A DNA stretch of 64,000 nucleotides from an uncultured Planctomycetaceae bacterium. GTDB lineage: Bacteria; Planctomycetota; Planctomycetia; Isosphaerales; Isosphaeraceae. Both the position numbers and the translations under genes were made by a program. Below the pieces are notes generated by a model that saw nothing but the letters and a program-made list of their open reading frames with translations, was not told the origin of the DNA and did no database searches. The DNA is taken from the NCBI GenBank assembly GCA_963833985.1, contig CAWIAD010000002.1:1344001-1408000 (forward strand), given 5' to 3'. Position 1 is the first letter of the stretch; each line of letters opens with the position of its first letter. Positions 18,305 through 49,492 of the stretch are shown here, piece by piece.

Positions 18305-18376
<72 letters not shown>

Positions 18377-31579: not shown

Positions 31580-31955
31580 GCGGACCCGAAGAAGTCCTTG
31601 GAGAGGATTGCCGTCCGCTTGCCCGGTGCTGAGGGCCAAGCCTGGTTGCTCTCCTCGTGGGGTACGATTCCGATCGTGCCCTTCCATTCTCGTGGGGTAG
31701 GATTCTATCCGTGCCCTTCCATTCTCGTGGGGTACGATTCCAATCGTGCCCTTGAATTCTCGTGGGGTAGGATTCTATCCGTGCCCTTGAATTCTCATGG
31801 GTACGATTCCAATCGTGCCATCCCTGGTCCATCAGGCAGAAAAAGTGCCACGAATGGAATCGAGTCCCACGAGGAGATCGAACAGGTGACATGATCGGAA
31901 TCGTGGCCCACAAAGAGCGGCCTCCCGGTCATGCAGGATCGCATCAACCGGCTGA
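31580..31955 (-). repeat. REP-containing non-autonomous repeat element, copy 1, with a 5-unit 35-bp tandem array (31654-31819)
   Basis: Units CTCGTGGGGTACGATTCCAATCGTGCCCTT(C/G)(C/A)ATT alternate with ...TAGGATTCTATCCGTGCC... units. The flanks are reverse-complement homologues of 47221-47319 and 49314-49450. Confidence 0.88.
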
Positions 31956-47172: not shown

Positions 47173-47319
47173 CGGGAGCCGCTTGCTCGAGAGCCGCGGT
47201 CTGTGGCCCGGCCACCGCGCTCAGCAGGTTGATGCGATCCTGGATGACCGGGAGGCCGCTCCTTGTGGGCCACGATACCCAATCGTGTCAATTCCATCAC
47301 CTCGTGGGACACGATTCCA

Positions 47320-49313
47320 GTGCGCCGTGGAAAGGTGTTGGTCTTCAGTGGGTGTAACTCCCACCCGGCAACTGGGTCGCTCCAGCCGGTAGCTATCGGA
47401 GCGGCGGTGGAGGAGACGAAACCGTCGGAGCCTTCGAGACAGATGTGTCGCTTGGCGATGCAGCGAACCGACAGGCCGTAACGCGAGTGAACGTTGAGCA
47501 GGCCTCGAAAAGTCCAATGTGGTCGCCGACCTTGCTGGAATATGGGGAAGGCCGCCGTCGCTGGGGATGAAAGGGAAACGGTTGGAATAGGCCGCCCCAC
47601 GAGCGATCAGAACCCAGCGGGCCACCGGGGTATTGACGACGGCATGTCGGCACACGGAGATCAACACAACACGGGAAACCCCAAGCGGTGAGGGCGCGTG
47701 ACCCTCAACCGGACGCCCGCGAGGGACCGGCCGGGCTGCCTGGGGTGGCGGAGAGGCCCGTAGTACCGTCGACGCCGGGTAACTCCGGTCGAGGGAAGGG
47801 GCCTTGGTTCAAGGTCAACGCAACAAGCGGCAGACAGCCGGGAGATTGGCGTGAGTCTATCACCTCCACTGAAGGTCGGGAAGTTGCAGACGGCGTTGCA
47901 CACCAAAGCGAAGAACGCGCCCAACTATCGGTTCTACGTCCTGTACGACAAGATTTATCGACGTGACGTTCTGGGATTCGCCTACGAACGCTGCCGTGCC
48001 AACGGCGGCGCGCCGGGGATCGACGGCCAGAGTTTCGCCGACATCGAGGCGTCCGGGAAGGAACGATGGCTGGACGAACTGGCGGAACAACTTCGTAAGG
48101 AGACGTATCAACCCCAGGCGGTGCGGCGCGTGTACATCCCCAAAGGGGACGGCAAGCAAAGGCCGCTGGGCATTCCTTGCATCAAGGATCGTGTGGTGCA
48201 GATGGCTGCGGTGCTGGTCTTGGAGCCGATCTTCGAGGCCGACCTGGAGCCGGAACAACACGCCTACCGCCCGGAGCGCAGCGCCCTGGACGCCGTCCGC
48301 GAAGTCGAACGGCTGCTCAAGACGGGGCACACCGAGGTGGTGGACGCGGACTTATCTGGATATTTCGATAGCATACCCCATTCCGAGTTAATGAAATCGG
48401 CGTCACGGCGCATCAGCGACGGTCGCGTCCTGCGGCTGATCAAGATGTGGCTGGAAACACCGGTGGAAGAAACCGACGGGAAGGGGCAGCGCCATCGAAC
48501 GACCCGGAATAAGGACCAGGGGATGGGTACACCGCAAGGTGCACCGATCTCACCATTGTTGTCAAACATCTACATGCGACGATTTGTGAAGGGATGGAAG
48601 ACTGGTGGACACGAGCGGCGTCTGGTCGCGCGAATCGTCAACTATGCGGACGACTTCGTCATCTGCTGTCGCGGCACGGCCGAAGAGGCCATGACGGTGA
48701 TGCGGAAGATGATGTCCAGGCTGAAGTTAACGGTGAACGAGACCAAGACGCGGCTGTGCCACCTGCCTGAGGAGACGTTCGACTTTCTGGGTTATACCCT
48801 CGGCCGGAACTACGACCGACGAACGGGCCGATCCTACATAGGGTCACGCCCATCGCGGAAGAAGATCATTCGGCTGTGCAGCGAGATCAGTGCGATGACG
48901 ACGCGCCAGACCACTGGACAGGACGTCGAGATGCAGATTGGTCGGATCAATCGCAAGTTACGCGGTTGGTCCAACTATTTTCGCATCGGAACGGTGAGCC
49001 CAGCCTATCGCCAAGTCAACCACCACGTCCGCTACCGGGTACGTCAGTGGTTGTGTGCGAAGTTCAAGGTGCCGGGTCAGGGGCTCAGACGCTACCCTGA
49101 CAGATACCTGCACCAGGAGTTGCATCTTTACCAGCTGCAACGAACCTAGCCGCGATGGTTTCGTGAGCGAACGTGTGAACTCAACCAATGAGACAAGCCT
49201 TGTCCGAAAGCTGGATGCGGGAAAACCGCCCGTCCAGTTTGATGAGCGGGGTGTGGAAACGAGGCCCAGCCGAGCCATCGACTCGAGCCCACCGCGCCAC
49301 GCCTCGACCCTAC
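47320..49313 (+). mobile_element. Group II intron (1994 nt; RT/maturase without an endonuclease domain)
   Basis: 5' GTGCG at 47320; domain V AAGCTGGATGCGGGAAAACCGCCCGTCCAGTTT at about 49208-49240; 3' end ...CGACCCTAC at 49313. Removing it restores the palindrome GACACGATTCCA|ATCGTGTC. Confidence 0.95.
47851..49149 (+). CDS. ltrA: Group II intron reverse transcriptase/maturase
   Basis: GAPGIDG, RRVYIPK..RPLGIP..DRVVQ, DADLSGYFDSIPH, GTPQGAPISPLLSNIY, YADD, FDFLGY and an X domain LRGWSNYF; no HNH. Confidence 0.95.
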   Translation: MSLSPPLKVGKLQTALHTKAKNAPNYRFYVLYDKIYRRDVLGFAYERCRANGGAPGIDGQSFADIEASGKERWLDELAEQLRKETYQPQAVRRVYIPKGDGKQRPLGIPCIKDRVVQMAAVLVLEPIFEADLEPEQHAYRPERSALDAVREVERLLKTGHTEVVDADLSGYFDSIPHSELMKSASRRISDGRVLRLIKMWLETPVEETDGKGQRHRTTRNKDQGMGTPQGAPISPLLSNIYMRRFVKGWKTGGHERRLVARIVNYADDFVICCRGTAEEAMTVMRKMMSRLKLTVNETKTRLCHLPEETFDFLGYTLGRNYDRRTGRSYIGSRPSRKKIIRLCSEISAMTTRQTTGQDVEMQIGRINRKLRGWSNYFRIGTVSPAYRQVNHHVRYRVRQWLCAKFKVPGQGLRRYPDRYLHQELHLYQLQRT

Positions 49314-49492
49314 ATCGTGTCACTTCTTCTATCTGATGGACCAGGAATGGCACGATTGGAATCGTACCCCACAAGGAGAGCGGTCAGGCAGGGCCCTCAG
49401 CCCCCGGGCAAGCGAACTGCAATCCTGCCAAAAGACTTCTGCGGATCTGCTGATCGCTGGTGCCCGGCCCGGCTTGGCCGGGCCCTGCGCGT

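Follow-up and report, generated by a model that had tools for sequence, protein, structure and literature searches.

How does a group II intron whose protein lacks an endonuclease come to lie inside a repetitive extragenic palindromic (REP) unit, and is that repeat recognized by its sequence or by the hairpin it can form? The question is raised by a stretch of 64,000 nucleotides (the window, to which all positions without contig label refer) from assembly GCA_963833985.1 of an uncultured Planctomycetaceae bacterium (contig CAWIAD010000002.1, positions 1,344,001 to 1,408,000), in which an intron of 1,994 nt separates the loop of a REP hairpin from its 3' arm. As detailed below, this is very probably an endonuclease-less class-F-like intron that uses the REP as its homing site and likely retrohomes to one of two REP types, type A, by RNA-DNA pairing. 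For the analysis, intron copies were located by blastn in the host genome (10.16 Mb, 65% G+C, two contigs, C1 and C2), while a search of 61 related genomes revealed intron relatives in 33 of them, with 72-87% identity for long matches.

The intron begins with GTGCGCC (GTGCG at 47320) and ends with ...GACCCTAC, the final AC being at 49312-49313; these ends were set at intron nt 1 and nt 1994, where the blastn alignments of all genomic copies stop. The domain I core is matched by Rfam family RF02003 (group-II-D1D4-4) at 47346-47486 with 98.9 bits. Apart from RVT_1 and GIIM, a domain search of the encoded reverse transcriptase (RT)/maturase returns nothing, an endonuclease domain being absent, and the protein passes the NCBIfam equivalog TIGR04416 for group II RT/maturases (360 bits at a cut-off of 300). 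Hence, GUGYG/AY ends, domain V, a domain I core, an RT/maturase and pairing between exon-binding sites (EBS) and intron-binding sites (IBS), as expected for a mobile group II intron, are all present. An earlier model-made reading of the letters alone, here called the first-pass annotation, had placed the intron at exactly 47320..49313 within a REP and had denied its RT an endonuclease domain; both statements are borne out, the former by ends that are exact in all copies and lie at the junction of loop and 3' arm.

Rejoining of the flanks in the window gives GTGGGACACGATTCCA^ATCGTGTCAC (the caret marks the insertion point here and below), a palindrome with an 8-bp stem, GACACGAT/ATCGTGTC, and the loop TCCA, in which the intron follows the last loop base and precedes the first base of the 3' arm. 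Allowing up to five mismatches from two 26-nt consensus forms, 163 empty REP units are found in the genome, among them 82 of type A (GTGGGACACGATTCCRATCGTGTCAC), 76 of type B (GTGGGGTACGATTCCAATCGTGCCAT) and five ambiguous ones, whereas five shuffled 26-mers used as control give 0, 0, 0, 0 and 1 matches. This substantiates the multicopy REP family that had been postulated at the outset, and the empty homologous unit then suspected on the minus strand is located at 31845-31870. The units cluster in arrays resembling bacterial interspersed mosaic elements (BIME-like arrays), with type A facing type B, and fold as DNA hairpins with about -5.5 kcal/mol compared to values of -1.3 to -1.8 for shuffled sequences. 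Thus, palindromy, high copy number and alternating clustering as known from REP/BIME repeats are all present. Near the window's copy, the long open reading frames (ORFs) stop before the REP array. A link to REP-associated tyrosine transposases did not emerge, as a REP unit is missing from about 1.5 kb around each of the seven Y1_Tnp matches found in the genome. Members of the family were also detected in 8 of 13 further genomes of the genus but in none of 23 genomes of other genera (reversed-pattern control: 0 in every genome), which indicates that it is older than the intron lineage found in the window.

In the genome, 13 intron copies can be distinguished by blastn. Two of them, the one in the window and C2:2152285-2154278, are uninterrupted, nine carry a 2.0-kb insertion after intron nt 1230, in one case together with a second insertion of 1,283 bp, one is apparently divided between two contig ends, and one is an old degenerate copy that is about 95% identical and shows internal deletions. 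The first 330 nt are identical among the 12 young copies, and an intact RT ORF is retained in just two. Twelve of the 13 copies reside inside a type-A REP unit, GTGGGACACGATTCC(A/G/C)^(A/T/G)TCGTGTCAC, invariably at the junction of loop and 3' arm; the filled units read GTGGGACACGATTCCR^ATCGTGTCAC or correspond to the compensated variant GACAAGAT/ATCTTGTC. The one remaining site (C2:1011493, ..gtcattGGACgGGATTCCA^GTTCGCCTG..) is not a hairpin, since the complementary 3' arm is absent, yet GGAC, GATTCCA (-7..-1) and the T at -15 are kept. Mapping of the copies therefore agrees with the proposed preference for REP units in 12 of 13 cases and departs from it in this one. All 13 sites fit the pattern ..T-G/T-GGAC-NNN-(ATTCC/ACTCC)N ^ NTC.., with GGAC at -13..-10 and T at -15 invariant in 13 of 13. 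The base at -1 is A in six copies, G in four (U-G wobble) and C in two, the degenerate copy having diverged there, and the base at +1 is A in eight sites, T in three and G in two. As to the orientation of the insertions relative to replication, the cumulative GC skew is too flat for placing origin or terminus. Independently of these site comparisons, it was observed that at four intron positions the window's copy is unlike all, or all but one, of nine other compared copies; two of these positions, nt 1982 and nt 1990, are within the last 13 nt, where the relatives match the other copies (..CACCTCGACTCTAC).

For mapping the exon-binding sites, the 5' ends and exons of 35 non-identical relatives were compared, using 19 intron/exon pairs for EBS3, and a consensus fold was calculated with RNAalifold from 15 aligned relatives. 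EBS1 is contained in a 9-nt terminal loop, GC-UGGAAU-A (47534-47542), of a 4-bp hairpin followed by GAAGGCCG, and changes in this loop among the relatives are mirrored by changes in the last 5-8 exon bases. With the register fixed, a mean of 5.06 of 6 Watson-Crick pairs is obtained for the 35 relatives, compared to 1.94 ± 0.24 with shuffled exons (maximum 2.89 in 2,000 shuffles). The EBS2 stretch (AAA-A-GUCC-AAUG) is found 20 nt upstream of EBS1 and compensates with exon positions -13..-10 or -14..-11, the forms observed for EBS2/IBS2 being GUCC/GGAC, GACC/GGTC, CGUCU/AGACG, CGUCC/GGACG, AACCC/GGGTT and GUUU/AAAC. Here, the mean is 3.03 of 4 pairs versus 1.89 ± 0.15 with shuffled exons (maximum 2.43, again in 2,000 shuffles with 35 relatives). 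The EBS3 column (GGGGUA-N-UG) forms a Watson-Crick pair with exon position +1 in 17 of 19 cases (nine A-T, four U-A, three C-G and one G-C); of the two exceptions, one is a U-G combination and the other has an uncertain boundary. In the consensus fold, EBS1 corresponds to a terminal loop, EBS2 to the unpaired 5' side of an internal loop and EBS3 to a 2-nt internal loop. The latter is of the kind named coordination loop in IIB introns. Taken together, the three sites can pair with 11 nt of the REP. Two further stretches were considered and discarded as exon-binding sites. CCCACGAG at 47596-47603 is a perfect complement of exon positions -19..-12 (CTCGTGGG) but is conserved in relatives with other exons, so that this match probably arose by chance, and intron nt 16-26 (GUGUU, GGUC) as alternative EBS2 show no compensation across relatives.

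Based on these sites, the following course of retrohoming can be proposed. The spliced intron RNA together with the RT/maturase would reverse-splice into that REP strand which carries the 5' arm and loop, with EBS2 GUCC pairing to GGAC (-13..-10), EBS1 UGGAAU to ATTCCA (-6..-1) and the EBS3 U to A (+1). For this, the 5' arm would have to be unpaired, and additional contacts, for example to the invariant T at -15, may be provided by the protein. Because the latter lacks an endonuclease, synthesis of cDNA would be primed by a nascent strand at a replication fork, as shown for RmInt1. More than 160 apparently intergenic REP copies would thus represent many harmless targets, about 25 perfect ones of which are still empty. 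The presence of several copies with exact ends implies past mobility of the intron.

Which bases matter can be approached by comparing the two REP types. Type A shows 12 filled versus 82 empty units, type B none filled versus 76 empty ones (Fisher p = 0.0006). Most type-B units, 65 of 76, possess ATTCCR and hence a suitable IBS1, yet have GGGT in place of the GGAC of type A. When considering only units with perfect IBS1, ten filled and 53 empty type-A units contrast with 0 and 65 of type B (p = 0.0006). This fits a requirement for Watson-Crick pairing between EBS2 and IBS2. Retrohoming by base pairing to a multicopy REP, as envisaged in the first-pass annotation, is supported by the complementarity of the EBS to the repeat, by 12 of 13 sites being REP units and by GGAC in all 13.

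Several findings weigh against this interpretation. Type A and type B also differ at +7 and +10, so that IBS2 is not isolated as the discriminating feature, and EBS2 pairing comprises merely 4 bp. In two filled sites, GACTCCC, positions -1 and -5 do not match EBS1. Regarding the window's copy itself, it differs at intron nt 1982 (49301) from all other copies examined and the relatives, and at nt 1990 (49309) from eight of nine other copies and the relatives; as the relatives agree with the other copies at both positions, the window's copy carries derived changes close to the 3' splice site and domain VI. Moreover, splicing and retrohoming are predicted from sequence; the best public sequencing run contains 0.21 of the sampled words of the stretch, and none reaches half. 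Finally, pairing alone does not account for the distribution over all matching sites. GGAC-N3-ATTCCR occurs at 85 sites genome-wide, ten filled and 75 empty, the empty ones comprising 25 hairpins (defined by a minimum of 7 out of 8 stem pairs) and 50 other sites. Among the perfect-IBS sites, REP hairpins are filled in 9 of 34 cases (25 empty), other sites only in 1 of 51 (50 empty; Fisher p = 0.0009). This excess indicates that something beyond the 11 paired bases favours REPs. No fewer than 25 hairpins in which IBS1 and IBS2 are both perfect are still empty.

The excess filling of hairpins speaks for a structure-assisted targeting, in which the REP hairpin extruded as single-stranded DNA would be recognized, either in the manner of group IIC introns or by a contact between EBS1 loop and REP loop, and pairing would only set the position. 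The folding energy of the REP as DNA given above is compatible with such recognition, as is the composition of IBS1 from the 4-nt loop and two stem nucleotides. However, IBS2 and part of IBS1 belong to the 5' arm and their pairing requires opening of the stem, one copy lacks the 3' arm altogether, and relatives are inserted where no hairpin exists or where a repeat arm ends. In addition, the T at -15 is present in 24 of the 25 empty hairpins versus 6 of the 50 other empty sites, and the hairpin effect is inseparable from this base or from selection. The REP excess could result from T-15, from selective loss of genic insertions or from the hairpin itself, three contributions that are inseparable here. 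Altogether, structure-assisted targeting appears unlikely, and homing to the REP is supported as homing to a sequence, not as hairpin recognition of the IIC type. The comparison with IIC introns drawn in the first-pass annotation consequently does not carry over to the mechanism, considering the presence of an EBS2 and of a IIB-type EBS3 loop, the insertion inside the hairpin, and the location of one copy and most relatives at non-hairpin sites.

Selective loss could also be invoked on its own, with insertion occurring at any EBS match, genic copies being lost and copies in REPs persisting. Supporting this, all kept copies look intergenic, and most of the 50 empty non-REP matches give the impression, unchecked and from sequence context, of being genic. 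Type-B REPs, however, are no less intergenic, yet all 76 are empty, and 12 of 13 copies share one 26-nt motif although non-REP sites with perfect IBS outnumber those in REPs (51 versus 34). Survivorship as the only cause is therefore improbable, even more so than structure-assisted targeting.

A pairing with the REP through other parts of the intron had been favoured in the first-pass annotation, which assigned EBS1 to TGGAAT at 47583-47588 and EBS2 to GTGTC at 47445-47449. These strings do exist in the intron, and each is complementary to exon sequence. However, the TGGAAT loop is found in 8 of the 15 aligned relatives (one further relative has TTAGAAT), and seven of these eight introns have other exon ends, the ATTCCA end occurring only with the window's intron; the identity of this loop with EBS1 looks like a coincidence. 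GTGTC is part of a helix (47444-47451/47455-47462) modelled as a stem by Rfam, in which four of eight pairs are changed on both sides (covariation score 0.312 versus 0.164 ± 0.03). Since the loops that covary with the exons are located elsewhere, this assignment is very improbable. Hence, covariation and the consensus fold place both exon-binding sites elsewhere than claimed but keep them complementary to the REP, and of the original observation the intron, the REP, the empty site and the missing endonuclease stand, while both EBS positions do not. Equally improbable is multiplication of the copies by duplication or recombination of REP-flanked DNA instead of intron mobility. Several copies indeed have BIME flanks in common, but the DNA beyond the REP otherwise differs from copy to copy, other flanks being unique and unrelated. 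In addition, the intron ends coincide to the nucleotide, and matching empty units exist, such as GTGGGACAAGATTCCA^TTCTTGTCTC, empty at C1:3092853 and filled at C1:2833550, which argues for separate precise insertions.

Concerning the class of the intron, its RT shares 51% identity over 431 aa with the RT of Ni.ha.I1 from plasmid 1 of Nitrobacter hamburgensis, an intron which the Zimmerly database assigns to "bacterial class F" and Toro and Martinez-Abarca (2013; PMC3552965, Table S2) to group g3. Ni.ha.I1 likewise belongs to the Rfam family D1D4-4 and lacks an endonuclease domain. With a length of 1,911 nt versus 1,994 nt here, it agrees with the window's intron in where the three exon-binding sites lie in the structure; with its published boundaries, EBS1 UUUUGC/GCAAGA (one G-U pair) and EBS3 U/+1 A fit. 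Its listed location is an IS4 transposase gene, whereas the window's intron is located in a REP. In contrast, RT identity is only 30% to Sr.me.I2 (g1) and 30% to the RT at NC_010627.1 170153-171646 from the class D table of PMC3552965. Membership in class D was accordingly rejected, also because the class-D-listed intron matches RF02005 and not RF02003. Likewise rejected was group IIC, owing to an EBS2 that is present and covaries, an EBS1 of 6 nt and the insertion inside the hairpin. A search of solved structures with the RT gave IIC RTs as top matches (E = 4.5e-50). The best plasmid matches are from two planctomycetes, Planctomyces sp. SH-PL62 (67.7%) and Frigoriglobus tundricola (64.8%). 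Traits of class F/g3 are present, namely the absence of a D/En domain, a IIB-like RNA, and EBS1 and EBS2 arranged as in domain Id, the domain that carries both sites in IIE and IIF introns according to the part of PMC3753933 considered here. Pending a full tree, the intron is thus best described as class-F/g3-like, an assignment made from RT identities and the shared Rfam family.

Homing of an endonuclease-less intron to a repeated element has a precedent in the class D intron RmInt1 of Sinorhizobium meliloti, whose homing site is in ISRm2011-2 (PMC4075523, in part). There, the target is read by EBS2 (-13..-9), EBS1 (-7..-1) and EBS3 (+1), and T-15, which is invariant at the sites described here, is a critical, key protein-read base (same excerpt). 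RmInt1 differs in its class, in having an insertion sequence gene as target and in a 5-bp EBS2, compared to a 26-bp palindromic repeat and a 4-bp EBS2 in the present case. Group IIC introns also lack the endonuclease domain and are tied to intergenic DNA hairpins (passages of PMC4424553 and PMC1702495), but in these passages they are described as having no EBS2, inserting after the stem-loop and reading structure, in contrast to the EBS2, the insertion inside the hairpin and the one hairpin-less copy found here. REPs as landing sites are known from REP-targeting insertion sequences and from an intron of Pseudomonas putida KT2440 (Tobes and Pareja, 2006; PMC1525189, in part), two of nine group II intron copies of that strain being REP-associated according to the same excerpt. 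In the present genome, by comparison, 12 of 13 copies occupy a REP, always at the same nucleotide, and the pairing accounting for this has been mapped. Class E/CL1 IIB introns found by attC-like structures in halophiles (Sonbol and Siam, 2021; PMC7923331, in part) are likewise non-IIC, endonuclease-less and beside hairpin repeats; in the sections drawn on, however, they occur as single truncated copies, each with its hairpin on the upstream side, and the repeat is not shown to provide an EBS-IBS match. In the available part of a 2015 review (PMC4424553), homing sites, terminators and attC sites are given as the three target specificities of bacterial group II introns, and PMC2936281 mentions REPs solely in connection with Y1 transposases. 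In the full-text literature, the entry on two of nine copies in P. putida is the only account of REP homing by introns that was found; subscription-only papers were not covered by this search and may hold a prior description. Sequence-specific homing as such is already known, and the comparison supports the REP as homing site as the new element.

The features of the window are compiled below.

Features of the window and of related composites (positions in the window unless preceded by C1 or C2; the caret marks an insertion point)
Feature	Position	Strand	Basis or remark
Empty type-A REP unit (GTGGGACTCGATTCCA^TTCGTGGCAC), IBS2 and IBS1 intact	31845..31870	-	REP census
BIME-like array	31657..31911		Five type-B units (+), two type-A units (-)
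Neighbouring A-like REP unit, 5-nt loop (GTGGGCCACGATACCCAATCGTGTCAA)	47265..47291	+	Sequence reading
5' part of split type-A REP (GTGGGACACGATTCCA), 5' arm and loop	47304..47319	+	Sequence reading and site comparison
IBS2, GGAC	47307-47310	+	Within 5' arm of split REP
IBS1, ATTCCA	47314-47319	+	5' exon end
Group II intron, 1,994 nt	47320..49313	+	One of two copies without insertion
Structural hairpin TGTGTCGC ttg GCGATGCA	47444..47462	+	Contains GTGTC; Rfam stem
EBS2, GUCC	47512..47515	+	Covariation; unpaired in consensus fold
EBS1, UGGAAU	47536..47541	+	Covariation with last 6 exon nt
TGGAAT loop, not exon-binding	47583..47588	+	In UUGGAAUAGG; hairpin in part of clade only
EBS3, U	47633..47633	+	2-nt internal loop (GGGGUA-U-UGA)
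Intron-encoded RT/maturase, 432 aa, in domain IV	47851..49149	+	ORF and domain matches
GATC in RT gene (codon 233, GTPQGAP^ISPLL), empty in window	48546..48549	+	Insertion point in ten other copies
Domain V and part of domain VI	49206..49288	+	RF00029, 41.2 bits (cut-off 40)
3' arm of split REP (ATCGTGTCAC)	49314..49323	+	IBS3 = A at 49314
Convergent type-B REP unit, empty	49347..49372	-	Type-B sequence GTGGGGTACGATTCCAATCGTGCCAT
Composites with A1245C in host genome (G000)	C2:6449421, C2:5368389, C2:5420400, C1:773979, C1:1996097, C1:2833550, C1:3092918

The 2.0-kb element that interrupts the RT gene in 10 of the 12 young intron copies encodes a large serine recombinase of 549 aa with Resolvase, Recombinase and Zn_ribbon_recom domains and is bounded by terminal inverted repeats that are perfect over about 20 bp. 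Of the 12 copies of this element in the genome, ten (among them C2:1012723-1014733 of G000) are inserted at the same GATC, in both orientations, and both orientations would agree with a palindromic joined-end site having a self-complementary core. A single-nucleotide polymorphism (SNP), A1245C, is shared by every one of the seven composites that are fully assembled and have the recombinase gene in the same direction as the intron, and is absent from the three other compared copies, that is, the two uninterrupted ones and one anti-oriented composite; a second anti-oriented composite was excluded from the SNP table owing to its further insertion. This pattern suggests that the 4-kb composite may spread as a unit with the RT acting in trans, or else that gene conversion has occurred. 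At the same intron position, a related frameshifted recombinase is found in a genome of another genus (G032, locus L013), and the old degenerate copy bears an 81%-identical remnant of the element at the same point. The second insertion mentioned above, 1,283 bp with inverted ends, is at C2:2147542-2148824 within copy C2:2143754-2149057 (intron nt 1762-1773) and has two further copies at C1:1489923 and C1:2490876. One end of each contig (C2:1-1245 and C1:1-747) breaks within the intron/recombinase composite, indicating that this composite repeat stopped the assembly. Elsewhere in the window, a tRNA gene is predicted at 18305-18376 on the minus strand (Rfam, 69.8 bits).

Related introns in other genomes are directed to other repeats. 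Those of G006, from the same genus, and G020, from another one, target GGGGACACCATACMY. In G006, GGGGACAYCATACMY occurs 27 times (control count 0), at times as inverted pairs, and the intron, having AGGUAU as EBS1, follows directly after one of these copies; in G020, four of five such repeat sites are filled. Several further relatives lie after ..GGGGTCAGACCGAGT. By comparison of these loops and exons, the clade appears to hold EBS2 near GNCC and to retune EBS1 to local repeats. The short repeat itself, GTTCCGGGGACACCATACCY, was recorded at 27 sites in G006 and five in G020 (loci L097-L108), with the EBS1 of the related introns being retuned to it.

Combining these observations, one may tentatively picture a REP-homing lineage whose commonest form would be the 4-kb composite, retrohoming with the two intact copies as the source of RT and carrying the DNA element as intron cargo via RNA, in a clade that would retune EBS1 to the intergenic repeat of each host; this extended scenario we hold to be about as apt to fail as to hold, if anything slightly more so. 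If true, a DNA element would spread through an RNA intermediate as natural cargo of an intron.

With the REP as homing site, a IIB-like class-F intron would combine sequence-precise homing with a target that is harmless and, as an intergenic repeat, available in many copies. The genome of the window also represents a natural test of the role of EBS2, a pairing that is dispensable for self-splicing of IIE and IIF introns in vitro and yet covaries (PMC3753933, in part), as REP units differing in IBS2 are either used or never used. Since the same clade is found on other repeats in related genomes, the system appears suited for studying the co-evolution of introns and repeats.

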